46,108 nucleotides of DNA. Source: an uncultured Nitrospira sp. (GTDB taxonomy: Bacteria > Nitrospirota > Nitrospiria > Nitrospirales > Nitrospiraceae). The position numbers and the translations under genes were made by a program. Positions 9,599 through 41,059 of the stretch are shown one piece after another. The stretch is from positions 1 to 46,108 of the forward strand of contig CAZKHY010000001.1 of assembly GCA_964552455.1 (NCBI GenBank), read 5' to 3'. The notes under the pieces were generated by a model. It searched no databases, was not told where the DNA came from, and was given only the letters and a program-made list of their open reading frames with translations. Within the stretch, counting starts at the first letter, position 1. Each line of letters starts with the position of its first letter.

Positions 9599-10683
9599 CG
9601 AGGGGAGCAGCGGTTCGTCCTCAAGTCATCCGAAGCTTTGACGACTTCCGGGACGCCCTCTTTGCCTTCCGTTTTCCCCGCGTCGTCTTGACCGCCCTCG
9701 AGCTGGACCTCTTCACGGTCATAGGAAGCCGTTCCCGGACGATCCCGGTCCTGGCCAAGCGGCTGCGCGTGAGCCGGCGGGGGCTCGACATCCTTTGCCG
9801 GAACCTGGCCTGCGCAGGCCTCCTCAGAAAACAGGGCGCGCACTATCGGAACGGGAGCCTGGCCGGCACGATGCTCAATGCCAAACACAAAACCTTCCGG
9901 GGCGCCTATCTGGATCTGTTGCGCACCCAGTGGGACGACTGGTCCCAACTGACCGAGTCGGTCAAAAGCGGACGGCCTGTGGAGCACGAGGCGCCGGACG
10001 ACCCGACCTACCGGCGGCAGTTTAGCCGGGCCATGCACCAGCGGTCGCTTGAGGTGGCGCCTCACGTGGCTGCGCAGGTGGACCTGAGAGGGGCCAAGAC
10101 GCTGCTGGACTTGGGCGGCGGTCCTGGCACCTATGCGCTGGCCTTCCTGGCCAAGAACTCCAATCTGCGGGCGACCGTCTGCGATCGGGCTCCCGCGCTG
10201 GAGGTCGCCAAGGAGATCGCCGCCCCGCTCACGCAGGGCCGGCGACTGTCTTATCTGCCCCTGGACTTCATGAACCGGAGGATTCCCGGCCGGTATGACG
10301 TGATCTGGTACTCCAACGTCCTGCACATCTATTCACCGGCTGAAAATCAGCGGCTCTTTCGCAGGCTGGCGTCGGCTCTGACGCCCGGCGGGCGGCTCAT
10401 CATTCAGGACGCCTTTCTGCTGGATCGGGAGGGGCTGTACCCCCAGGAAGCCAATCTCTTTGCCGTCACGATGCTCCTGTTCACCGAAGGGGGGAACACC
10501 TATACGGCTCGTGAAACGACGGACTGGCTCCGTCGGGCCGGCTTTACAACGGTGCGCCGGATCAGCTTGCGGAAGGGGGCGGAGGATTGGGAGGGGGGGC
10601 TTCTGGAGGCGTCTCTTCCGAAGACGCAACCGGGCTCACGTCCAGGAAGCCGCGCCCGCCGAGTACGATCAGCAGGAAGTTGA
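9595..10683 (+). CDS. Class I SAM-dependent (O-)methyltransferase with N-terminal winged-helix dimerisation domain
   Basis: Contains the SAM motif LLDLGGGPGTYA, then RLIIQD. GTG 9595 overlaps the AKR stop (GTGA). The track ORF from 9214 is a run-on. Confidence 0.8.
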   Translation: MTRGAAVRPQVIRSFDDFRDALFAFRFPRVVLTALELDLFTVIGSRSRTIPVLAKRLRVSRRGLDILCRNLACAGLLRKQGAHYRNGSLAGTMLNAKHKTFRGAYLDLLRTQWDDWSQLTESVKSGRPVEHEAPDDPTYRRQFSRAMHQRSLEVAPHVAAQVDLRGAKTLLDLGGGPGTYALAFLAKNSNLRATVCDRAPALEVAKEIAAPLTQGRRLSYLPLDFMNRRIPGRYDVIWYSNVLHIYSPAENQRLFRRLASALTPGGRLIIQDAFLLDREGLYPQEANLFAVTMLLFTEGGNTYTARETTDWLRRAGFTTVRRISLRKGAEDWEGGLLEASLPKTQPGSRPGSRARRVRSAGS

Positions 10684-29000: not shown

Positions 29001-29719
29001 GCCGGTCCTCGGCGTCCTTTAAGACCGGGTTCCGTCTGAATGACCGGACCCTGATGATTGATTTGGGGAGGTCCAGAAGAGTGCTGTCCTCAGCCCCGCG
29101 GGGAGGAGGGTTCGTGCGGGCCCGGTACCTGCTGAATCATCAAGTGCCGGCTCATCCAATCTCAAGTCATTCGTCCAACCGCCGATGGAGTGATCCGGCC
29201 CGTTACCTCGGCCGTGTGGCCTCAAGCCTCGGAGCCGACCGTCGCGTCGTCGCCCTCATGACCGCGGTCCCGCTGAAGCAACTGGTGGTCTTGCGTGAGG
29301 AAACGGCCGGCCTGTGGGTCGAAGGGTTCTTTACGGTCGGCGTGACGAATGCGGTGCGGGCGGGAGAGCTGGTCGGTCTTGTTCAAGACGAGCAACGCAG
29401 ACGTGCTCCCGGTACCATTAACATTATCCTGGTCACCAATGCCTACTTGGCGGCCCCGGCCATGGTGGGGGTGGTCCAAGTGGCGACGGAAAGCAAAACG
29501 GCTTCGTTGCTGGAGGCAGGGGTGCCGAGCTGGACCGGTGCACCGGGCGCGACCGGCACCGGCACCGATGCCCTCGTGGTCGCCAGCGGCACGCGTGGAA
29601 ACGGGCCGACGCTTCGCTACAGCGGGACCCATACCAAGATCGGTGAACTGGTCGGAAGGCTCGTCAGTCGCGGCGTCGAACAAGGCCTTGCCAAATCGTT
29701 GCGTTGGTCCAAGCGATAA
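28997..29719 (+). CDS. cbiZ: Adenosylcobinamide amidohydrolase
   Basis: Shows a CbiZ-like pattern (VSSAPRGGG, MTAV, GTINIILVTN, ATGTGTDALVVA). GTG 28997 overlaps the cobD stop. Confidence 0.7.
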   Translation: MSRSSASFKTGFRLNDRTLMIDLGRSRRVLSSAPRGGGFVRARYLLNHQVPAHPISSHSSNRRWSDPARYLGRVASSLGADRRVVALMTAVPLKQLVVLREETAGLWVEGFFTVGVTNAVRAGELVGLVQDEQRRRAPGTINIILVTNAYLAAPAMVGVVQVATESKTASLLEAGVPSWTGAPGATGTGTDALVVASGTRGNGPTLRYSGTHTKIGELVGRLVSRGVEQGLAKSLRWSKR

Positions 29720-29770
29720 AAGCCTGTTCCCTCAGCCAACTGCCCTTGCCCGCTGGCTCTCAGAGCCCCA

Positions 29771-29854
29771 CGCTGAACGCGGAATAATGAATGCCGGACG
29801 GTCTGGTTCGGCACTCTGTCGGTCGTCGTTCCGCGTTCCTCATTCATGCTTGCT
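29771..29854. repeat. Heptamer-array element related to family A
   Basis: Left arm is cgctgaa cgcggaa taatgaa tgccgga; right arm is cgttccg cgttcct cattcat gcttgct. Confidence 0.7.
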
Positions 29855-30164
29855 TCGTGCCGGGTGCGCGCATTTCGATGATTGATCAAGGCGTTCCGCC
29901 GTCGGTTCCGCTTCTGTCTTCTCCGCACAATTTTCGTCACCAAGAGTCCAAAACCGAACGGTTCTCAGGGGCTTTTATTTTTCGGCTCCCTCCGGCCTGC
30001 CTCTTAAACCGCTGACTTTTCTGCGATCTGTGGCTTGTTCCGGCGGGAGCCGCAAAATGACCGGTGCGGCACAGAATCTGCTCGTCTCGTTCGACGGGGG
30101 AGGAGACGGCCGGTCATTATCTCTGATGACTTGATGGAGGATGAGACAGGGCAGGGAGGATGCC

Positions 30165-30899
30165 ATGCGATTCAAGGTTTCTACCGGGGCATTGGGAATG
30201 AGCTTCGTTGCGTGCTTGTCGCTCTTCGCGGCTCCGGCGTCGGCAGCCAACGAGATCGAGACCGCCGAGCTCTTGACCAAGTTGATGCAGGTGGGCCGCA
30301 GCGTGGTGAACGAGCATCAGGATCTGATCAACGATGCCGGCAAGGGGAATAAGGGATTCACTCCGGAGTACCTGGCCGAGCGGGTGATCCGGCAGTACAA
30401 AGAAAAGACCAATATCGATTTGAACAAGCCGTCCGCCACGCAACAATCGGGTCTGCTGCTCACGCTTCTGGAATCGGGCAAGGAGGTGGTGGCGGAGGTT
30501 CAGCCGATTATCAACAAACAGGGGATCGCCTTCAAGGGGTTCATCCCCGCCTTGTGGGGAAGAAGGACGGCGGAAAAGTTCACCAAAAAGACCGGTATCC
30601 GGTTGAAGCTCACCGCCCTGGATTACCGTTTCCCCGGAAACAAGCCGGATGACTTTGAAGCTGAAGCTTTGCGGGTCTTGTCAGACCCGGCCTATCCCAA
30701 GGGAAAGGGTTACAGCAAGCTGACCATGATGGAGGGGAGGCAGGTCTTCCGTCTCATGACGCCGGAATATGCAAGCGCCAGGTGCCTGATCTGTCATGGC
30801 GAGCCGAAAGGGGAACGGGACATCACCGGCATGAAAAAAGAAGGGCTGAAGGAAGGGGACCTCGCCGGAGCCATCAGCCTGGCGATCCCGGTGCGGTAG
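30165..30899 (+). CDS. Periplasmic c-type haem DUF3365 (Tll0287-like) sensor-type protein
   Basis: Has a signal peptide (MRFKVSTGALGMSFVACLSLFAAPASA) and a single CxxCH near the C-terminus (CLICHG). Length and pattern fit DUF3365. The RBS GGGAGGA lies 4 nt upstream. Confidence 0.7.
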   Translation: MRFKVSTGALGMSFVACLSLFAAPASAANEIETAELLTKLMQVGRSVVNEHQDLINDAGKGNKGFTPEYLAERVIRQYKEKTNIDLNKPSATQQSGLLLTLLESGKEVVAEVQPIINKQGIAFKGFIPALWGRRTAEKFTKKTGIRLKLTALDYRFPGNKPDDFEAEALRVLSDPAYPKGKGYSKLTMMEGRQVFRLMTPEYASARCLICHGEPKGERDITGMKKEGLKEGDLAGAISLAIPVR

Positions 30900-30961
30900 G
30901 GGCCGGGGGGACGGTCCTCTGCGGTTGATGTTGTCAGGGCAGCGAAGGAGGCGAAGGGACG

Positions 30962-31324
30962 ATGAGCAAGATCCTGGTCGTGGATGATTCGAACGCGGAA
31001 CTGCAACTGATCGAAAGCTATTTGCGATCGGCCAATCATACGGTGGTGTCCTGCCCCACGGCCGACAAGCTGGAGGAGCGGTTGGCCATGGACCGGCCGG
31101 ACCTCATCGTGCTCGACGTGATCATGCCCGGGCGAAACGGATTCCAGGCCTGCCGGGATCTGAAGAACGATGAACGGTTCAAGACGATCCCGGTCGTGCT
31201 CTGTACGTCGAAGGGACAGGAAAGCGACAAGTTCTGGGGACAGCAGCAGGGGGCCAACGGGTACGTGGTCAAGCCGTTCAAAAAGGAAGAACTCTTGTCG
31301 GCGGTGAAAAAGGCGCTTGGCTGA
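30962..31324 (+). CDS. Single-domain response regulator (CheY/PilH-like)
   Basis: Contains ILVVDDS, the phospho-acceptor DLIVLDVIMP and YVVKPF. It is 120 aa. Confidence 0.9.
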   Translation: MSKILVVDDSNAELQLIESYLRSANHTVVSCPTADKLEERLAMDRPDLIVLDVIMPGRNGFQACRDLKNDERFKTIPVVLCTSKGQESDKFWGQQQGANGYVVKPFKKEELLSAVKKALG

Positions 31325-31364
31325 CGCGGTCCGCGACCGTGCGCCCGCCACCGTGGTGACGAAC

Positions 31365-31859
31365 ATGGACCGACCTGGCGCTGCCACCCCGCCGTTCGAG
31401 GATGCCGGTCAACCAGCGCGAGCCGAGGCTCCGTTGCGGATCTGCCTCCTCAGCCTGGCCGGAGAATGCTTTGCCGTCGATCTGCGGAACGTGCGGGAAG
31501 TGTTCGAAGTGGACGGGGTCACGCCGGTTCCCGGCATGCCGGCCGTTCTGACCGGGGTGGTGAACCTGAGGGGCATGGTGATTCCGTTGGTGGATCTGCG
31601 CGCGATGCTCGGGCTTCCCGTCGTCGGTTCACCTCTGCCCTTTGCGGTCGTGATCCAGCACGGACCGCAGCAAGTGGCGGTGCTGGTTGACCAGGTGCCG
31701 GAGATCCGGACGGTGCTGAAGGACGATGTGCTGCCGGCTCCGTCGCAGGATCGCCGCGGGGTGATCCCCTTTGTCACCGCCATCGTGCGGATGGGCGACC
31801 GCATCGGCGGGGTGGTCGAAGTCCCGATGTTGCTGACCTACGTGGAGACCGGGCGGTGA
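31365..31859 (+). CDS. CheW-like coupling protein (PilI-like)
   Basis: Contains FAVDL..V.EV, P.....GVVNLRG.V.PLVDLR and VDQV.E. Confidence 0.8.
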   Translation: MDRPGAATPPFEDAGQPARAEAPLRICLLSLAGECFAVDLRNVREVFEVDGVTPVPGMPAVLTGVVNLRGMVIPLVDLRAMLGLPVVGSPLPFAVVIQHGPQQVAVLVDQVPEIRTVLKDDVLPAPSQDRRGVIPFVTAIVRMGDRIGGVVEVPMLLTYVETGR

Positions 31860-31933
31860 ACTGAACGGCGAGCCCAGCGATCGTGCCGTCGGCCTGTCGG
31901 TCCGCCTGCGCGCAGCGCCTAAGGAGGGGAAGC

Positions 31934-33805
31934 ATGGAGAAGCGGGGGTTCCAAACCTGGTTTAAAGATCTGAAGACGGGGAAAAAGCTGATGCTCGGCT
32001 TCACCGCCGTGGGGGTGATCATCGTCGCGGTGGGGATCGTCGGGTTGCTGGGCCTCCAACAGCTTCGCTCGCAGCTCCAGATCGTGTACGAAAATTCGAC
32101 GATCGCCTTGGGCAACCTGGGGACCGTGAGCAGCAACCTGGGGCTGTATCACGATGCGGTGCTGACGGCCGGGCGGCAGATCCGGAAGGCCGAATTCGAG
32201 GACGCGATCAAACCCCTGCCCGGACTCAAGAGCCGGGTTCTCAAGCCGCTGGAGACCTATGCCGTCGGACAGATGCACGTCTCCACGAGCGGCCGCGACG
32301 AAGCCAAGGATTACCAGGCCCTCCGAGCCGCCCTGGATGCGTATTTTGCGGCGGCTGAAGGGGCGATCAGCGCCTTCGAGGACAGTTTCTCGCCAGCGAT
32401 AACGTCGGAACAGCGTGGGATGATGAGGGATCTTGGGACCCTGGCCCTGTCGGTTGACGTGTCCACCAAATACAGCGCCGCGACCGCGCGGGTCCGGGAA
32501 CTCCTGGCCACGGTGCAGGATGTGGCCAAGGATCTGAACGAGACCGGGCAGGCTGTGGCCGCGGGTCGGACGCGCGTGGTGATCGTGGGGGCGCTGGTGG
32601 CGATTGTCCTGGGGCTGGGCATCGGGTCGCTGTTGGCCCGCTTCTTTTCGCAAGGCGTCACCCACATCGCCCAAGTGGCCAGACAGGCGGCTTCCGGCAA
32701 CCTCAAGGCGCGGGCATCGCTGAACAGCAGGGATGAGCTGGGCCAGATGGCCGTCGCCTTCAACACGATGCTCGACCGGATCACGAAGCTGGTCCAGACG
32801 GAGGAAGAACGGAACCAGTTGCAGCGGCGCCTCATCGAGTTCCTGGCCTTGGTGGCCGAAGTGAGCAAGGGCGACTTGACGAAGCGGGGTCAGGTGACAG
32901 CGGACATGTTCGGCAACCTGGCCGATGCGTTCAACCTCATGCTGGACCGTTTCGGTCAGTTGATGCATCAGGTGCGGGACGCGGCCGGGCACGTCAACGG
33001 ATCGGCCGGCGCCTTGCGCGAGACCGCTTCGCAAATGGCCGGTACGGCCGAGCGCCAGACCGAGGAATCGGCGCGCACCCTGGCCGCCGTCGAAGGCCTG
33101 ACGCAGTCCATGCGCCAGGTTGCCGAAACGGCCGGGGCTTCTTCGGACAGCGCCAAACAAGCGCTGACCGCGACGGAGCGAGGCCGCATCGCCGTCCAGG
33201 AAACCGTCCAGGACATGCAAAGCATCCGGGGCGCGGTGCAGCGCATGTCCAAACAGGTGAAAGGGCTGGGCGACCGCTCGCTCGAGATCTCCCAGATCGT
33301 GTCCACGATCCGCGACATTGCCGCGCAGACGAACTTGTTGGCCTTGAACGCCGCCATCGAAGCGGCGGGAGCCGGCGAAGCCGGGGCTCGCTTTGCGGTG
33401 GTGGCCGACCAGGTGCGCAAGCTCGCCGAGGGCTCGACGCAGGCCGCGCGCGAGATCGCCGATCTGGTCAAGGTCATTCAGACCGAGACCCAGGACGCGG
33501 TCGTGGCCATGGAGCATGAGACCCAAGCCGTGGAGGCCGGGTCGGCGTCGGCGCTGCGAACCGGCGACGTGTTCCAGGAGATTTCACACATCGCGCAACG
33601 ATCCGCGGATCTCGCGCAGAGCATCGCGCAGTCATCCTCGCAGCAGGCCGCTGCCACGGAAACGGTCGCCCGGGTTATCCAAGAGATCACCGGCGGGGCG
33701 GTTTCGACCCAGAAGGCGGCCGAGAAGACGCGCCTGACGGTCGAGGAGGTGGCGAAGCTGGCGGAGGGCTTGACGGGCGCGGTCGGCCAATTCAAGCTGG
33801 CCTAG
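31934..33805 (+). CDS. Methyl-accepting chemotaxis protein (4HB sensor, HAMP, MA domain; PilJ-like)
   Basis: Has two TM helices, HAMP and the signalling hairpin [38 protein letters not shown]. The RBS AAGGAGGGG precedes ATG 31934. Confidence 0.9.
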
Positions 33806-33832
33806 CCGGAGCGAGTCCATGACCTGGGAATC

Positions 33833-36697
33833 ATGATGGACGCTGACGCCAACCGGGAGCCACTGATCGGCGTCTTTGTCGCCGAGGCCTCCGAAGGCCT
33901 GACCAGGCTGGACCGGGTGTTGCGTCCGGCAGACGGGACCGTTCCTGCCCCGCATTCGCTGCAGCCCCACTACATCATCGCGCACACCTTGAGAGGAGCG
34001 GCCTCCCTATATGGGTTCCCCGGCGTCGCCGGGCTGGCGGAGATCCTCGAAACGACGCTCGAAGGATCAAGCGCGGTGTTGCCGGAGGATTGGCCCGGCA
34101 CGGCGGCCCTGCTGCAAGAGTTGGTGGCGCTGCTTCGTGCACAGCTTGACCGCATCGAGCGCGGGGAAGCGGAGGACCAGACCGCTTGTGAACGGTGGAA
34201 AGCCCGCCATCGGCAGGCCGTGCTTCGAACCGGAGAGGGTGATCCGGACCGCTCACCGGCCGAGCCGTTTCCGGACCGGTACCTTCTGCCGGACCTGGAC
34301 CCGGAAGTCTTCTCCTACTTCTCGCCCGAAGCCCAGGAATATCTGGAGGCCATGGAAGGAGCTTTGCTCCGGTTGGACAAGGACCCCGCCGATGCGGACA
34401 CCATCCAGCGTCTCTTCCGGACGGCCCATACGCTGAAAGGGTCGGCCTATACGGTCGGATTTGCCGCGATTGGGGACCTGACCCATCACATCGAAGATTT
34501 CATGGGCGCGATCCGTGAAGGCCGGATGCAGATGACCCCGGGATTGGCGGACCTTATTTTCCGCGCCGTGGACGTCATCAGGCTCCTGCTGAAGCGGGAC
34601 TCACGCAGTCTGCCGCAGACCAGACGGGAATTTGCAACGGCGATGGAACGGCTCGCGCAGGCAGCGCAGCCGCAGATCGCCACGGCCTTGGACGGTCCTG
34701 CGGCTGTCCGGCAGCCGACGTCGGTGGAGCCGGCGGAAATACAACGGTCCGCACCTCCCGATCGGCCGGGGGCGGAGCCGGCCGGCAAGGCCGGATCCAA
34801 GGAAGCCGGCGAAGGTGCGGTCATCCGGGTCAGCCGGGAGCGTCTGGAACGGCTGTTGAACCTCGTCGGCGAGCTGGTCATCAGCCGCGGCAGGCTGGAG
34901 CAGCGGCTGATGGCCCTGGAGCAGCTCTCGGGGCAGGTCCTGGCCTACAAGCACCGGATGCTTGAGTCCGTGCGCACGTTTCAAGACAAGCACGCCTTTA
35001 CCTTGTCCGACCCGCCGCCCGGCACGGATGAGCCGGGCGGGTCCTGGATGCAGGTCCTGAGCGACTTCGGCGATCTCGAGTTCGACAAGTACGACGACTT
35101 CAACATTCTGGCCCGGCGCATGACCGAGGTCTCGGCCGACGTCGGCGAGTCCATGGCGCAGCTCAACGCCTCGATTCGCAAGGCCCGCGAGGACATGGGG
35201 CATCTCCAGCGGCTCACGCGCGCCATGCGCGATGAAATCGCCCGGGCCCGCATGGTGCCGATCGGAACGCCGTTCACCCGCTTCCGACGGGCGGTTCGTG
35301 AGATGGCGCGGGTGACCGGCAAGGATGTCACGCTGGTCACCTCGGGCGAGCAGACCAAAGTGGATACAGGAGTCGTCGAGCGGCTCGTGGACCCCCTGGT
35401 GCACCTCGTGCGGAACGCCGTCTATCACGGCGTTGAAGCGCCAGCCCTCCGGGTCGCACGCGGCAAGCCCGCGACAGGGACCGTCTATTTGCACGCGGCC
35501 CACCGGGGCAACGCGATCGTGATCGAGGTCGAGGACGACGGGGGCGGGCTGGACCTCGAACGAATCAAGGCGAAGGCGGTTTCGTTGGGTGTGCTGCGCC
35601 CTGAACTGGCTCCCGGCTTGTCCGATTCCGACGCGATCAAGCTGGTGTTCCTCCCTGGTTTCTCCACGGCGGAGGGAGTCGGCGATCAGGCCGGGCGCGG
35701 CGTGGGCCTGGACGTCGTCAAGCGGGCCATCGAGGCCATGAACGGCCGCATTGACGTTGAAACCGAGCCGGGCGTGGGCACGAAATTCACCCTGAGCCTT
35801 CCGCTCACGCTGCTCATCTCCACGGCGCTGCTGGTGCGGGTCGGGAACCAGCGCTACGCCGTGCCGCTGCCCGGCATCCGGGAAGTGGTCTTGCCGGCGT
35901 CGGGCGACATCCGGACGATCGGCGGCCGCACGGTCTTGCAGGTCGGCGACGAGGCCATCGAGGTGCTGGCGCTTGCGCAAGTCCTGGGTCTGGAATCACC
36001 GGCCCCGTCCGGCCCCACGCCGGTCGTCATTGTCCGGACCATGACCGGGGCGCTGGGGATCGCCGTGGACGAGCTCTTCGGCCGCCAGGAGATCGTCATC
36101 AAGACCCTCGGGACGCTCAAGCCGTTTCGGGAATCGTGCTTCGGGGGAGCCACGATCGACCCGGAAGGCCACGTGGTGTTGGTGCTGGATGTCGGTCGAC
36201 TGGCCACCTGGCGGAAGGCTTTGGGAGCGGAGGTTCCGGAAGAGGGCCTGGTGTCGCTGCCGGCGGAGGGCGGGGATCGGCCGGACGCGGTCCCCCCGGA
36301 CCTCCCGCCGCCGGTTTCGCGGATCCTGCTGGTGGACGATTCGCTGAGCGTCCGCAAGTTCGTCGGACGCATGCTGGAAGGGGCCGGCTACGTCGTGGAC
36401 ACGGCCGTGGACGGCGAAGAGGGGCTGAGAAAAGCTTCGGCGGTGGCCTACAGGCTGATCATCACGGACCTGGAAATGCCGAAGCTGAACGGCTACGAGG
36501 TGATCCAGGCGCTCCGGGTCAGGCCGCATACACAGTCAACGCCGATCCTCGTCATGACCACGCGGGCCGGGGAGAAGCATCGGCAGACGGCCTTGGGCAT
36601 GGGCGCGACCGCATACATTACCAAGCCGGTGGAGGAGCGTGCCTTGATCCTTGAAGTGGAGCGCCGGATCGGGACTGCGACCGCGATGAAAATCTAG
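33833..36697 (+). CDS. Hybrid CheA-type histidine kinase (2 Hpt, dimerisation, HATPase, CheW and REC domains; ChpA/PilL-like)
   Basis: Hpt motifs are AHTLRGAASLYG and AHTLKGSAYTVG. It also has the N box HLVRNAVYHGVE, G1 DDGGGLD, G2 GRGVGLDVV and a C-terminal receiver (ILLVDDS...LIITDLEMP...YITKP). Confidence 0.9.
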   Translation: MMDADANREPLIGVFVAEASEGLTRLDRVLRPADGTVPAPHSLQPHYIIAHTLRGAASLYGFPGVAGLAEILETTLEGSSAVLPEDWPGTAALLQELVALLRAQLDRIERGEAEDQTACERWKARHRQAVLRTGEGDPDRSPAEPFPDRYLLPDLDPEVFSYFSPEAQEYLEAMEGALLRLDKDPADADTIQRLFRTAHTLKGSAYTVGFAAIGDLTHHIEDFMGAIREGRMQMTPGLADLIFRAVDVIRLLLKRDSRSLPQTRREFATAMERLAQAAQPQIATALDGPAAVRQPTSVEPAEIQRSAPPDRPGAEPAGKAGSKEAGEGAVIRVSRERLERLLNLVGELVISRGRLEQRLMALEQLSGQVLAYKHRMLESVRTFQDKHAFTLSDPPPGTDEPGGSWMQVLSDFGDLEFDKYDDFNILARRMTEVSADVGESMAQLNASIRKAREDMGHLQRLTRAMRDEIARARMVPIGTPFTRFRRAVREMARVTGKDVTLVTSGEQTKVDTGVVERLVDPLVHLVRNAVYHGVEAPALRVARGKPATGTVYLHAAHRGNAIVIEVEDDGGGLDLERIKAKAVSLGVLRPELAPGLSDSDAIKLVFLPGFSTAEGVGDQAGRGVGLDVVKRAIEAMNGRIDVETEPGVGTKFTLSLPLTLLISTALLVRVGNQRYAVPLPGIREVVLPASGDIRTIGGRTVLQVGDEAIEVLALAQVLGLESPAPSGPTPVVIVRTMTGALGIAVDELFGRQEIVIKTLGTLKPFRESCFGGATIDPEGHVVLVLDVGRLATWRKALGAEVPEEGLVSLPAEGGDRPDAVPPDLPPPVSRILLVDDSLSVRKFVGRMLEGAGYVVDTAVDGEEGLRKASAVAYRLIITDLEMPKLNGYEVIQALRVRPHTQSTPILVMTTRAGEKHRQTALGMGATAYITKPVEERALILEVERRIGTATAMKI

Positions 36698-36760
36698 CCA
36701 CACGGTCCCCTGGAGTGTCGGGTTGCTCCGGGGAGGCGACATCCGTCAAGGGGCGACGAA

Positions 36761-37390
36761 GTGAGTTTCCGCAACAAGACAGAGGGGCTCGCTCCTGCCT
36801 TGGAAGGGGCGGCGCAGTTTCTGGTGGTGCGCTGCGGGCGGACCTGGCTTGCGCTAGCTGCGGACATCGTCCGCGGCATTGTTGAGCCGGCGGGCGCCGT
36901 AGGGGCGGAAGCTGCGACCCTGCCCGCAATGGCGTGTCCTCTGACGGATCTGGCCGCCCAGCTCGGACTGTCGAGTGAGACCCCGTCGCCGGAGGCAAGA
37001 GTGGTTTCGTGCGCGATCCATGAGAGGCGCCGCGCACTGCTCGTTGACCGGGTGGCCGGTCTCTGCGACGTGGAGACCAACCGGATCCGTCCGCTTCCGC
37101 CGCACTTCACCGGTTCCGAGCGGAGGTGGATCACCGGGCTGTTCCTGTTTCAGGAGTCCGTTGCGCTTGTGCTGGATTCAGGCTGGCTGGTTGGGCCCGA
37201 GGGCACGGCGTCCGGTCAGGCGGTCATCGTGGAGCAGGCTCCTCGTCCGGTGGCGGAGAGCCCGGAGTCTTGTGATCCGGGGGGCAGCGCCCTTGTGGAG
37301 GATGTCGTAGCCCTCACCGGGACGGGGTTGGAGCGCGTGGAGTTTGAGGAGGCCGGCGATGCGGAAGACATCCCTTGGGCCGACCTCTAA
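36761..37390 (+). CDS. CheW-like domain protein (divergent)
   Basis: Contains QFLVVRCGRTWLALAADIVRGI...LLVDRVAGL.DVE...I.PLP. The start is GTG. Confidence 0.55.
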   Translation: MSFRNKTEGLAPALEGAAQFLVVRCGRTWLALAADIVRGIVEPAGAVGAEAATLPAMACPLTDLAAQLGLSSETPSPEARVVSCAIHERRRALLVDRVAGLCDVETNRIRPLPPHFTGSERRWITGLFLFQESVALVLDSGWLVGPEGTASGQAVIVEQAPRPVAESPESCDPGGSALVEDVVALTGTGLERVEFEEAGDAEDIPWADL

Positions 37391-37880
37391 GGTGCCCCAG
37401 CACTGGTCGCTCGTGGTCTTTTCCGTGGGGGGGCGGCGTGTGGCGGCCAAAACGGAGGAAGTGGGCGGGGTCTTCCCCTGGACCGACGCGATGCCGGTTC
37501 CAAGCGAGACGGACGGTGTGAAGGCGGTCGCGAGGCATGGCGAGGAGGTGCTGCCGGTCTACGATCTGGCCGGTCGGCTGCACGTCCGGGCCAAAGGCGC
37601 GGCGTTCCTCTGCCTCGTTGCGAAGCGCCGGGACGGCCGGATGGCGATCTGCATCGACGACGAGGTTCCCACCATACGGACTCTGGACGCCGCCGCCGTC
37701 AGGCCCGCAGGCGGAGACTCCGACGTGGTGGGGACCTGCCTGCTGGAGATGGAAGAGGTGCCGATTTACTCGCTGGCGACGTTAGGGCTCCTATCCACAA
37801 GGCCGGATTCGATCGGGCCAACCGGGCGGAGACAGGGCGCGGAATTCAGGACATCCCATGCCGAAGATTCTGGTGGCTGA
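37359..37880 (+). CDS. CheW-like domain protein (divergent)
   Basis: Contains LVVFSVGGRRVAAKTEEVGGV...G.....GEEVLPVYDLA...ICIDDEV. The RBS GAGGAGG lies 6 nt upstream. It overlaps the previous gene by 32 nt. Confidence 0.55.
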   Translation: MRKTSLGPTSKVPQHWSLVVFSVGGRRVAAKTEEVGGVFPWTDAMPVPSETDGVKAVARHGEEVLPVYDLAGRLHVRAKGAAFLCLVAKRRDGRMAICIDDEVPTIRTLDAAAVRPAGGDSDVVGTCLLEMEEVPIYSLATLGLLSTRPDSIGPTGRRQGAEFRTSHAEDSGG

Positions 37881-38628
37881 CGACAGCATCGCGGTCCGGA
37901 AGGTCGCGGAACGGCTCTTGGTCGGAGCGGGCCTTGAGGTGGTCCTGGCCGCGAATGGCGAAGAGGCCCTGACTTGGTTGGCGAACGAGCGGCCGGACCT
38001 CATCGTTTGCGACGTCATCATGCCGGATAAAACCGGCTACGACGTGTGCCTCTTTGTCAGGTCCCATGCGATCCTTTCCGAGACCCCGGTGCTCTTGATA
38101 TCCGGGATCGTCAACGAGGAGGTCACCCGCCAGGCCGGGTCCTGCCGCGCCGACGGCCTGCTGAAGAAGCCCTTTCAAGGCACCTCGCTGCAGGATTGCG
38201 TCCTGGAGCTTCTCGCGAAGCGGCGGACCCAGCCGGCCAATCACGAGGCAGCCTCTCCCGCTGCCACCCAGGCGGCCACAAGCCCCAAGGTCTACCGGAT
38301 CACGGAGGAACAACTGCAGGCCTTCCGTCATGCGACGACTCGGATCAAGGAACTGGAAGCTCTCGCGGCGCAGGAACGAGCCAAGTCCGCGGAGTTGGCC
38401 GGTCCGTTGCCGGTCCCAGGCCGCGCCGACGAACGGGTCGCGGAACTGGAGGGGCTGCTGGCACAGGAGCGGGAGCGGTCCGCCTTCCTGCTGCAACGGG
38501 TTCAGGAAATGGAGCGTGCCGCCTTGCGGGCGGACGAGCAATTGGAAGCGGCGACTCGCACGCTGGCCGAAATCGCTCGTCTTGCCGCCCGGCCAATGAA
38601 GGCGGAACCGTCGGTCAGCCACGAGTGA
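37858..38628 (+). CDS. Response regulator receiver with C-terminal coiled-coil extension
   Basis: Contains ILVADDS, DLIVCDVIMP and LLKKPF, then a ~120-aa Ala/Glu/Arg-rich heptad-like tail (ELEALAAQERAKSAEL, ELEGLLAQERERSAFL). Confidence 0.85.
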   Translation: MPKILVADDSIAVRKVAERLLVGAGLEVVLAANGEEALTWLANERPDLIVCDVIMPDKTGYDVCLFVRSHAILSETPVLLISGIVNEEVTRQAGSCRADGLLKKPFQGTSLQDCVLELLAKRRTQPANHEAASPAATQAATSPKVYRITEEQLQAFRHATTRIKELEALAAQERAKSAELAGPLPVPGRADERVAELEGLLAQERERSAFLLQRVQEMERAALRADEQLEAATRTLAEIARLAARPMKAEPSVSHE

Positions 38629-38681
38629 TTCGCTTGGTTGTCCCTTCCCCGGCTCATAGGGCAAACGGATCGGAACCGACC

Positions 38682-39725
38682 ATGGCTGCAAGCCCACAGG
38701 ACGATCCATTTCTGGAAGAAGTCATCGGGCTGTTCGTGCAGGAAGCTCAGGAATGGCTCGCCCAGATCAACGATGCGCTGCTGGAACTGGAACGGGGACA
38801 GGCCCCCGAACGGGCGACCAAGCAGTTCGAGATCATGCTCCGCGGGTTGACGAACCTCGGCGGATCTGCAGCGACGGTCGAGGTGAAAACCGTTGAACGG
38901 GTGGCGCTTTCGTTGGTGCCTCTGTTGCAGGCTTTGCAAAGCCGGGGGGGCAGGACCGCAGGGGACCGGTTCGCCATCGTGCGCGAAGGCCTCCAGGCGG
39001 TCGCGTCCGCAATCCAGGATGCCACCGGGGCCGAAGCTCGTGCAGGCAGCGGTTTCGATCACCTGCTCCAACGAATTGTCGACGCCACGGTCGCGCAAGG
39101 GGCCACCGCACCGGTGCCGGGGCAGCCGTCTTGCCCGAGGCCGGAGGAGCAAGACCCGGCGGTTCCTTCTCGATCCTTCTCGGTCATGGACGTGCTTCTG
39201 AATCTTCGACGAGGCCCTGCCTCCTCTTCAGAGCATTCCAGGCATGTTCTTGAAACGGTCCTCCAGAGGGTTCGCGCCGATTCTGATCGCGGAACCGGGG
39301 CCGTTGATCTGCTCCCATCCGTTCTGCATGTTCTCCGAGAGCTGAAAAGGCTGGATGAACTGTTTCTGGTTGAGCTGGAGCAGCGGCTGCCCGAGATCAC
39401 CCGGGGTTTTCACGGCCTCAAGGCCGAGTGGGCCGCCGGCCGGGTGCCGTCAGACAGGGTGGCGAAGATGTTAGGGGAGACCCGATGCCTCCATGAAGTC
39501 GCCAGCAACGCGGGGGCCAGGGAGGCGGCGCTGTTCTTTGCCGGGCTCCAAGTCTTTCTTCAGGTGGCTGCCCGCAGGCATGTTGTGATCCCGCCGCAGC
39601 GGTTCGATGCCGTGGAGTCCCGTCTCAGAGACATCATTCCCCTTGCCAAGCAGTGGGTTGATTTGGGCCTGGTTGAGCGGACGGCGATTGAAACGGCCCT
39701 CAGCGAAGGCGCGCCCTGCCACTGA
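38682..39725 (+). CDS. Hypothetical protein with Hpt-like four-helix-bundle segments
   Basis: The N-terminus (FLEEVIGLFVQEAQEWL...MLRGLTNLGGSAATV) looks like Hpt but has no His at the expected site. A C-terminal segment (RCLHEVASNAGAREAALF) keeps a His. The assignment is tentative. Confidence 0.4.
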   Translation: MAASPQDDPFLEEVIGLFVQEAQEWLAQINDALLELERGQAPERATKQFEIMLRGLTNLGGSAATVEVKTVERVALSLVPLLQALQSRGGRTAGDRFAIVREGLQAVASAIQDATGAEARAGSGFDHLLQRIVDATVAQGATAPVPGQPSCPRPEEQDPAVPSRSFSVMDVLLNLRRGPASSSEHSRHVLETVLQRVRADSDRGTGAVDLLPSVLHVLRELKRLDELFLVELEQRLPEITRGFHGLKAEWAAGRVPSDRVAKMLGETRCLHEVASNAGAREAALFFAGLQVFLQVAARRHVVIPPQRFDAVESRLRDIIPLAKQWVDLGLVERTAIETALSEGAPCH

Positions 39726-40242
39726 TTTTTTTCTCCGGGTCTGGTCATCCCCCGCTGCTTACGCACTGAATCAAACGTGACGGCAAAGCAACGACTTGCT
39801 GCTGATCATGGCCCAGCATGTTGTGGCTGTCCGTGCAACCCCCAACAAGATACATAAGCCGATGAAATTGCTATGCTTGAGTAGCACAAAATTTGTGCAC
39901 TCTGCTACAAGGTGCTGCGTTGCTGATCGGGAAAAGTTGATTCACAAGATTATCCCCAGCCCATCCACAAATTTTGTGGACAGAAATTTTTTCCTCCGCG
40001 TCGCCGATTTCACCGAACACTTGTTGGGCGCGGTTGTGAAAAGCCGGGAGCGATGAAAGGCTTGCTGCAGGCTGTTTTTCCGAGCCGGAGCATCGCGCCC
40101 CTGCGTGAAGATTGGAGAAAAAAACAAGCCTGAGCCGATTGCCTTTCTGCAAGCAGATTTTGTCGCTTGTGCACATGAAATCACGCCTCAGCAGAGAGGA
40201 AATTGCCGGCCGGTAAGAGGATGGGCCGCGCGCTTTTGTCAG

Positions 40243-40522: not shown

Positions 40523-41059
40523 ATGCCGAAAATCATCACTGCCAAGCGGCTTGAAGGCGAGACCGAGCAGGCCAGGGAATATGTGAAGACCCACATCTTG
40601 TTTCCGTCCGGCGTGCTGGGGCTGATCCTGCTGATTGCGGGGACCGGGTCGCTCGTGTACCAGTTCATGTTCGAGGCCTACGGATGGAAAACGTTCCTTG
40701 AAAGCACCGTGCTGCTGCTGGCGGGCGCGCTGATCGGATGGGCCCAGACCCGCTACCACAAGTATGTGCTGCGGGAGCATCCGGGCTATTTTGCCGGCCG
40801 GTTGAGGACCTTCACGAGGACCGGGCCGAAACGATCCAAGCGGGAGGCCCCGGCCTCCGAGCTTCGACATTGGGGACGCAACTGGGTTCCGCTCTACTAT
40901 CTGCTGGGGGCGGGCGCGCTGCTCGGCGCGTCCTTGGCCAGCTCGATTCTCGGCCAGGTCTATTACATGGCGGCCTTCCTGATGCCCTGGGCCGGGTTTT
41001 TCTGGGCAAAGATGTTCTTTTGGCGGGGATTGCTGACGCAGGGCAGAAGTGAACAGTGA
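40523..41059 (+). CDS. Integral membrane hypothetical protein
   Basis: It is 178 aa with four predicted hydrophobic helices. No family was recognised. Confidence 0.5.
   Translation: MPKIITAKRLEGETEQAREYVKTHILFPSGVLGLILLIAGTGSLVYQFMFEAYGWKTFLESTVLLLAGALIGWAQTRYHKYVLREHPGYFAGRLRTFTRTGPKRSKREAPASELRHWGRNWVPLYYLLGAGALLGASLASSILGQVYYMAAFLMPWAGFFWAKMFFWRGLLTQGRSEQ

Follow-up and report, generated by a model that had tools for sequence, protein, structure and literature searches.

Gene content of the locus

The DNA analyzed here (the window) is a stretch of 46,108 nucleotides from an uncultured Nitrospira sp. of the family Nitrospiraceae (assembly GCA_964552455.1, contig CAZKHY010000001.1), corresponding to the first 46 kb of the 71-kb contig C1. 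At positions 30165-39725, nine genes (g1-g9) form a chemosensory block, whose organization, class, and likely output are the subject of this study. All nine genes are on the plus strand, and neighbours overlap or sit 23-63 nt apart. For g3, g4, and g7, the start codon can be placed only to within 15-51 nt.

The first gene, g1 (30165-30899), encodes a secreted Tll0287-like (DUF3365) single-haem c protein (Pfam PF11845, 83 bits) with a CLICHG motif and a hydrophobic N-terminus in its sequence, and is a candidate periplasmic co-sensor. The chemosensory core follows. g2 (30962-31324) encodes a single-domain CheY-like receiver (Response_reg, 91 bits), and g3 (31317-31859) encodes a canonical CheW adaptor (CheW, 99 bits) in the PilI position. 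g4 (31883-33805) encodes a transmembrane methyl-accepting chemotaxis protein (MCP) with a four-helix-bundle (4HB) sensor, two HAMP-like segments, and a signalling domain with the length of the 40-heptad (40H) type (Pfam 4HB_MCP_1, HAMP, and MCPsignal). The product of g5 (33833-36697) is a hybrid CheA composed of two histidine phosphotransfer (Hpt) domains, HATPase_c, P5, and a C-terminal receiver (REC), with no P2, according to Pfam and the sequence. All parts of the core, that is, the MCP, CheW, the CheA with its Hpt, dimerisation, HATPase_c, and P5 domains, and the receiver, score above the Pfam gathering thresholds.

The remaining four genes encode accessory proteins. g6 (36761-37390) and g7 (37344-37880) encode divergent CheW-like proteins (CheW, 49 and 41 bits, respectively; cut-off, 23.5), the former with an acidic tail. 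g7 overlaps g6, and its likely ATG is at 37359. g8 (37858-38628) encodes a receiver (Response_reg, 74 bits) followed by a heptad-patterned helical tail. g9 (38682-39725), with its ATG at 38682, encodes a pseudo-Hpt protein, whose score for Hpt PF01627 (22.4 bits) is below the gathering cut-off (24.6 bits). An earlier note on this DNA had described a nine-gene chemosensory cluster with three CheW-like genes at this position, and the Pfam domains confirm this description.

Conservation of the block as one unit

The block is carried by 23 of 41 relatives. A scan with the g9 alignment gave 264 confirmed relatives, and 78 loci were kept, 77 of which bear Nitrospira-type names; the exception is a metagenome-assembled genome labelled Cytophagia. 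The cultured Nitrospira moscoviensis NSP M-1 is among the matches and has the block. The order g1-g9 is retained in 13 of the 14 relatives fetched from whole genomes and in ~75 further loci, essentially all those long enough to show the order, so that the co-occurrence of the nine genes is lineage-wide and no one-off. In 12 of the 14 relatives, the block starts with g1.

The boundaries of the block are defined by comparison with a congeneric block-negative genome (G001) using blastn. Positions 9706-9970 and 9984-10369 of locus L116 in this genome correspond to positions 29446-29710 and 39812-40197 of the window, respectively. The flanks are collinear, and only 13 nt are found in G001 where the window has 10.1 kb. 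Two other block-negative genomes (G015 and G009) have the same empty site. Because G001 lacks exactly positions 29711-39811, the nine genes constitute one unit of gain or loss. This clean insertion/deletion (indel) includes both g1 and g9, and the haem protein and the pseudo-Hpt protein have therefore been gained or lost jointly with the Che core.

The 3' end of the block varies. In variant A, a single g9 is at the end, as in the window, in ~13 other loci, and in a second family of the order. In variant B, which is found in most Nitrospira including N. moscoviensis, g9 precedes a gene whose 700-780-aa product joins a second g9 module to an HD_5 (HD-GYP) domain. A third layout, intermediate between these variants, is found at one locus (L025, G010:C5:851000-869000), where the HD-GYP is encoded by a separate 381-aa ORF directly 3' of a single g9, with no second g9.

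No paper describing this nine-gene block of Nitrospira was found in full-text literature searches; the earlier note had suggested that it could be an undescribed variant of the alternative cellular function class. Its parts are named ChpA, PilH, response regulator, or Hpt domain-containing protein in public annotation. The block probably represents a lineage-specific form of the known Pil-Chp/Pix (pilus-type) systems rather than a system of a new kind. Each part has a known analogue, and it is the combination itself that is lineage-specific: a haem c protein, a methylation-free core resembling the type IV pilus (Tfp) class, three adaptors, a REC-coiled-coil protein, and a Thr-type pseudo-Hpt protein within the operon.

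Class of the chemosensory core

In g2, the DD pair, D52, T82, and K104 are conserved in 22 orthologues, several of which are automatically named "twitching motility response regulator PilH" by the Joint Genome Institute (JGI). g3 retains the NLRG segment in the alignment. In g5, two His-bearing Hpt stretches (AHTLRG and AHTLKG) and a long dimerisation region are followed by Response_reg at residues 831-942, and a low-complexity linker occupies the place expected for P2. g5 is thus a multi-Hpt kinase with a C-terminal REC and no P2, and its orthologues are automatically named "chemosensory pili system protein ChpA" by JGI. In g4, 141 residues extend from the tip residue (Glu499) to the C-terminus, corresponding to 20 heptads per arm; the 40H assignment is one by length, not by a class hidden Markov model. 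The alignment of g4 with PcaY (6s18) is near-gapless over 303 residues. The Pil-Chp/Pix likeness pointed out in the earlier note is borne out by the multi-Hpt CheA with REC, the 40H receptor, the extra CheW adaptors, and the JGI names ChpA and PilH.

Approximately 93% of CheAs with several Hpt domains fall in the Tfp class or the alternative cellular function (ACF) class (PMC10782961), and the architecture of the block fits these two. The REC-GGDEF, CheR, and CheB proteins of a Wsp-type system are found neither in the block nor in the blocks of the relatives. Likewise, the cluster contains no counterparts of PilK (CheR) and ChpB (CheB) of Pil-Chp. NCBIfam gave no class-level model, every match being far below its own cut-off, and sequence searches of the PDB with g2 and g8 gave generic receivers only. 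Among the ACF rows listed in table S2 of PMC10782961, no CheA of N. moscoviensis is given. Between the two classes, the indirect evidence leans to Tfp.

Independence from methylation enzymes and flagella

The earlier note had stated that CheB and CheR are missing. In a profile search of the genome, neither was found on the 71-kb contig C1, including the part outside the window. Three CheR and two CheB genes are present genome-wide, on contigs C82, C44, and C119 only. The genome has three CheA genes, and the two outside the block are each accompanied by CheR and CheB. Among the 23 block-positive genomes, FliG is absent from 13, one of which is closed, and co-occurrence of the block with flagellar genes, as expected for a flagellar (F-class) system, is not seen. 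Six of the block-positive genomes, namely G002 (closed), G005, G008, G011, G026, and G035, have neither FliG nor a CheR above the Pfam cut-off. The block is therefore non-flagellar and methylation-independent.

The positions of the CheR genes in the source genome should be noted, since the enzymes might merely be displaced: the receptor could be methylated in trans by the CheR on C119 or by the CheR and CheB of the two other Che clusters. The number of such enzymes in the genome, the absence of any che gene next to the C119 CheR, and an S-S-S-Q-Q-A-A-A-T stretch in g4, which we take to fit the methylation-site consensus, are in favour of this explanation. Three observations make it improbable. 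Six block-positive genomes have no CheR at all, the g4 C-terminus has no xWxxF pentapeptide, and the orthologues of the C119 CheR do not track the block: one occurs in block-negative G022, those in G023 and G024 are interrupted by stops, and most block-positive genomes have none. This orphan CheR, whose neighbours are unrelated genes for a DinB-like polymerase and a YkuD transpeptidase, was accordingly rejected as the methyltransferase of the block. The CheR-free block-positive genomes and the independent distribution of the orphan CheR thus indicate that the lack of CheR and CheB is a property of the system. The orthologues with in-frame stops are at loci L023 (G023:C17:29940-30779) and L024 (G024:C156:1406-2251), suggesting that the orphan CheR is decaying in parts of the family.

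Structure and relatives of the pseudo-Hpt protein g9

The AlphaFold2 model of g9 (predicted local distance difference test score, 87) consists of a five-helix N-terminal bundle, a disordered linker, and a C-terminal helical bundle. In a fold search using Foldseek, the best specific matches are CheA P1 domains, with template modelling scores of ~0.83 on the target, and the top one is from a crystal structure of P1 with a CheY (3kyi). The N-domain also matches Hpt1 and Hpt2 of the cluster's own CheA in hhalign (probability, 97%; E ~1e-10), and its profile matches the P1 domain of Thermotoga maritima CheA in the PDB (E, 2e-6). Despite the sub-cut-off Pfam score, the N-domain of g9 is clearly homologous to CheA P1 by both fold and profile.

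The acceptor site is altered. The motif hTNLGGSAATV is invariant in the alignments, and Thr57 in this motif occupies the His position of HxxKG. The next residue, N58, is invariant or nearly so. The C-domain gives probabilities of 9-19% only against Hpt profiles in hhalign, and its fold search returns generic four-helix bundles, Hpt among them, with E above 0.2. With Thr57 at the His site and a non-conserved His (CLHEVA) in the second bundle, g9 lacks any conserved His that could be phosphorylated. The earlier note had assigned two Hpt-like bundles to this protein, one of them lacking the His; the first bundle is indeed P1-like, with an invariant Thr, but the second is not detectably an Hpt by sequence. 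The g9 family is small, with 108 cluster representatives (E below 1e-30) among 1.84 billion proteins.

These features resemble those of FimL of Pseudomonas aeruginosa, a stand-alone protein with two Hpt-like domains that has Gln in place of His, is homologous to the N-terminus of ChpA, and is required for Chp-dependent cAMP synthesis (PMC3019171). Like FimL, g9 is a stand-alone homologue of the Hpt region of its cognate CheA in which the acceptor His is replaced. FimL itself is not among the fold or PDB matches of g9, and no direct sequence comparison of the two was made.

The g9 modules of the two variants were compared in a tree of the g9 family, in which g9 of variant A, the free copy of variant B, and the fused copy of variant B form one cluster each. 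Variant A weakly joins the fused copies (76% in the Shimodaira-Hasegawa-like approximate likelihood ratio test), and the tree is compatible both with loss of HD-GYP in A and with its gain in B. Hpt domains bind receivers and the variant-B fusion has no receiver of its own; it therefore looks like a device for recruiting a receiver to HD-GYP in trans. The earlier note had held that the output cannot be inferred. This is too pessimistic, given the fusion of a g9 paralogue to HD-GYP in most Nitrospira and the precedent of FimL (PMC3019171). As judged by eye, the fused HD-GYP and a stand-alone HD-GYP encoded on contig C81 of the source genome have AHE or EHE for the expected HHE, and TG or NG for the expected DG before GYP, so that hydrolysis is doubtful.

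The gene for the stand-alone HD-GYP (C81:13591-14784, minus strand) encodes a Pro/Ala-rich N-terminus. It lies in an exopolysaccharide-type locus (C81:8600-15625), beside genes for an ExeA-like AAA ATPase, a Wzz/GNVR tyrosine-kinase-type chain-length determinant, and a Wzy_C protein. The idea that this HD-GYP is a split-off partner of g9 is unsupported, its orthologues being present in block-negative G019, G009, and G017.

Alternatively, g9 might act as a receiver phosphatase or an inhibitor of phosphate flow and not as a scaffold: its P1-like face would dock phosphorylated CheY or g8, and Thr57-Asn58 would position a water molecule. Such an activity would supply signal termination without CheZ, CheC, or CheX and without methylation-based adaptation. 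Supporting points are the invariant or nearly invariant T57 and N58, located where a phospho-His would be opposite the Asp of the receiver; the fold match to the P1 domain crystallised with CheY, which is the best one obtained; and the absence of any phosphatase family from the block in Pfam and NCBIfam. However, g9 is unlike CheZ, CheC, and CheX in both sequence and structure, the REC domain of CheA can act as a phosphate sink, and the fusion of the g9 paralogue to HD-GYP better suits an adaptor. The His-less Hpt-like domains of ChpA have no demonstrated activity (PMC10782961). We regard a phosphatase role as unlikely.

Haem protein and accessory proteins

Though divergent, g6 and g7 are true members of the CheW fold according to Pfam. 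g6 is weakly conserved and has no NLRG segment in the alignment. Its tail (window positions 37300-37390) ends in DAEDIPWADL, and the motif D-A-[ED]-D-x-P-W-A-x-[LI] is found in ~24 loci. This terminal peptide is a candidate docking peptide. It is common to loci of both variants and absent from Nitrospira sensu stricto. The orthologues of g7 are 38-60% identical. Two adaptors with separate roles are known in Pil-Chp, where PilI is required for arrays and ChpC has an enhancing role (PMC13599512).

In the receiver of g8, the DD pair, D52, S82, and K103 are conserved in 88 orthologues, and the tail sequence is poorly conserved. The earlier note had described a receiver fused to a coiled coil of ~120 aa. 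The fusion holds, but the coiled coil is ~100 aa long and is divided into two heptad segments (residues 148-182 and 190-245, by crude heptad scoring) by a Pro-rich kink.

Three more Tll0287-like haem paralogues, with 40-47% identity to g1, are encoded in the genome (C55:20089-20727, C141:6121-6837, and C114:7770-8417). Receiver-domain genes lie no more than a few kb from at least two of them, suggesting a general pairing of the Tll0287-like haem domain with signalling genes in the source genome.

Possible pilus or cyclic di-GMP output

PilT is present in all 23 block-positive genomes and in 7 of the 18 block-negative genomes (Fisher p = 1e-5). This distribution is compatible with a link to pili and is no proof of it. 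In the source genome, two copies of pilT, a pilB-like gene, and pilM are on contigs other than C1, and the block is flanked by cobalamin genes and lpxD, in agreement with the earlier note, which had found no adjacent pil genes.

With moderate confidence, we read the block as a Pil-Chp/Pix-type module, self-contained and non-flagellar, that is inherited vertically, is specific to Nitrospirales, and is free of receptor methylation. Several observations, besides the lack of neighbouring pil genes, weigh against this reading. The g4 sensor is 4HB_MCP_1/TarH-like and has no match to the PilJ domain in Pfam. There is neither a PatA-type (PATAN-REC) protein nor a PilG-type second CheY, g2 and g8 giving only Response_reg in Pfam. 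The association with PilT is confounded by phylogeny, since whole families lack both, and within the family the difference (18/18 versus 5/7) gives p = 0.07. The variant in the window has no HD-GYP, and the nearest one in the genome, on C81, is not tied to the block.

The lack of pil genes beside the block also favours a different possibility, in which the pathway is of the ACF type and its sole output is cyclic di-GMP (c-di-GMP) signalling for biofilm formation or aggregation, with no link to the type IV pilus. g9 would then recruit or regulate HD-GYP in trans in the source genome and in cis in most Nitrospira. At most loci, a g9 paralogue is fused to HD_5, a separate HD-GYP gene directly follows g9 in G010, and the related HD-GYP of the source genome is beside the exopolysaccharide-type locus. 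In addition, an 805-aa two-Hpt CheA of Nitrospira inopinata, whose orthology to g5 is not established, is given as ACF among the entries of table S2 of PMC10782961. On the other side, variant A has no HD-GYP yet keeps the nine genes, the C81-type HD-GYP also occurs in genomes without the block, the residues of the HD-GYP domains make hydrolysis doubtful, and the JGI names of the orthologues are ChpA and PilH. We consider the ACF-type pathway possible and rather unlikely.

Proposed mechanism

The mechanism that we propose for a Pil-Chp/Pix-type module is as follows; the roles of g6, g7, g8, and g9 in it are drawn from architecture only. The 4HB receptor g4 may sense a periplasmic cue together with g1, and the cue is probably related to redox state, gases, or nitrogen oxides. 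g3 and CheA-P5 would form the core array, and g6 and g7 would extend or modulate this array in the manner of ChpC beside PilI. Phosphate from the two Hpt domains of CheA would be transferred to g2, to the kinase's own REC as a sink, and to g8. Phosphorylated g8 may act through its coiled coil, giving an output by localisation or effector binding.

g9 is expected to carry no phosphate. In a FimL-like manner, it would use its P1-like face to bind a receiver or CheA and would couple the pathway to an effector. This effector would be the HD-GYP (c-di-GMP-type) domain in most Nitrospira and an unlinked partner in the source genome, for which type IV pilus components and the stand-alone HD-GYP are candidates. 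The output in the source genome may accordingly be control of the type IV pilus through g2 and g8, or a c-di-GMP-type partner addressed through g9, and the controlled behaviour is most likely surface behaviour or aggregation.

A more far-reaching scheme, which we offer as a speculation of low probability and which would amount to a new signalling principle, is that non-phosphorylatable Hpt mimics, namely the P1 domain of g9 with Thr in place of His and the paralogue fused to HD-GYP, read the output of the kinase by binding phospho-receivers or as receiver phosphatases. They would thereby replace adaptation by methylation and wire a pilus-type array directly to c-di-GMP sensing and hence to aggregation in nitrite oxidisers, and the conserved PWAx[LI] tail of g6 would provide a second site for docking.

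Comparison with known chemosensory systems

The Pil-Chp system of P. aeruginosa (PilG/H-PilI-PilJ-PilK-ChpA-ChpB-ChpC, plus FimL) shares the order CheY-CheW-MCP-hybrid CheA with the block. In both systems, CheA has multiple Hpt domains, a C-terminal REC, and no P2, and extra CheW-type adaptors follow the kinase, as is the case with ChpC. Both also possess a stand-alone His-less paralogue of the Hpt region of the kinase, and a second-messenger enzyme is linked through this pseudo-Hpt protein, in the case of the block at least in sister lineages. The differences are as follows. The block has neither PilK nor ChpB, and its receptor has a 4HB sensor instead of the PilJ type. Pil-Chp has both PilG and PilH, whereas the block has one small CheY plus the REC-coiled-coil protein. 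The CheA of the block has 2 Hpt domains compared with 8-9 in Pil-Chp. The pseudo-Hpt protein has Thr where FimL has Gln, and its gene is inside the operon. The partner is HD-GYP (c-di-GMP type) for the block family and the adenylate cyclase CyaB for Pil-Chp. Finally, unlike Pil-Chp, the operon is headed by a gene for a haem c protein.

The cyanobacterial Pix/Tax/Hmp systems (PixG-H-I-J-L and HmpA-F) are of the Tfp type and consist of CheY, CheW, MCP, and a hybrid CheA-REC, with no known CheR or CheB; Hmp has the accessory coiled-coil protein HmpF. Unlike these systems, the block has neither a PatA-type regulator nor photoreceptor GAF domains in the MCP, it has a pseudo-Hpt protein, and it joins its coiled coil to a receiver. 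Wsp of Pseudomonas, an ACF system, is similarly non-flagellar and has a hybrid CheA-REC, a 40H receptor, two CheW-like proteins (WspB and WspD), and a c-di-GMP output, a kind that the block may also have. However, the output protein of Wsp is the REC-GGDEF cyclase WspR, and Wsp has CheR and CheB; the block has no GGDEF, CheR, or CheB. Where a c-di-GMP-type domain is present in the block family, it is an HD-GYP joined to the pseudo-Hpt protein and not to a receiver as in Wsp. FrzS of Myxococcus xanthus, which acts in the context of pilus motility, has the same architecture as g8, with an N-terminal receiver followed by a coiled coil. FrzS has a much longer coiled coil and a receiver devoid of the phospho-accepting Asp, whereas g8 keeps all catalytic residues.

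In soils, waters, and wastewater plants, nitrite is oxidised mainly by Nitrospira, whose growth as flocs and biofilms is of practical weight. Several members have no other chemosensory system than the block, which is therefore the best candidate for turning an environmental cue, perhaps sensed by haem, into surface behaviour or aggregation. It is also a compact natural case of a pilus-type chemosensory pathway that needs no methylation. The role of His-less Hpt domains has long been unclear. The block offers an entry point to it, since a FimL-like pseudo-Hpt protein inside the operon makes this role testable with a small set of proteins.

Neighbouring genes

On the 5' side, the block is preceded by cobD, an aminotransferase gene, and cbiZ (end at 29719), which are cobalamin genes. 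A simple promoter scan 5' of g1 gave no sigma-70-like site. On the 3' side, the block is followed by a 557-nt gap, a small membrane-protein ORF, and lpxD on the minus strand. The non-coding segment at 39812-40197 has ~70% DNA identity with the congeneric genome without the block; being outside the indel, it is therefore part of the neighbouring conserved region and not of the chemosensory module.

An ORF with four predicted transmembrane helices at 40523-41059 (plus strand), which trails the block at nearly all loci, was considered as a tenth member. It was rejected, as it is present in 41 of 41 relatives, including block-negative ones, and is outside the indel. The ORF encodes 178 aa with four predicted hydrophobic helices and no Pfam family, and occurs as a single copy in each of the 41 Nitrospirales genomes searched, usually beside lpxD. 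It is an uncharacterised membrane protein conserved across the order.

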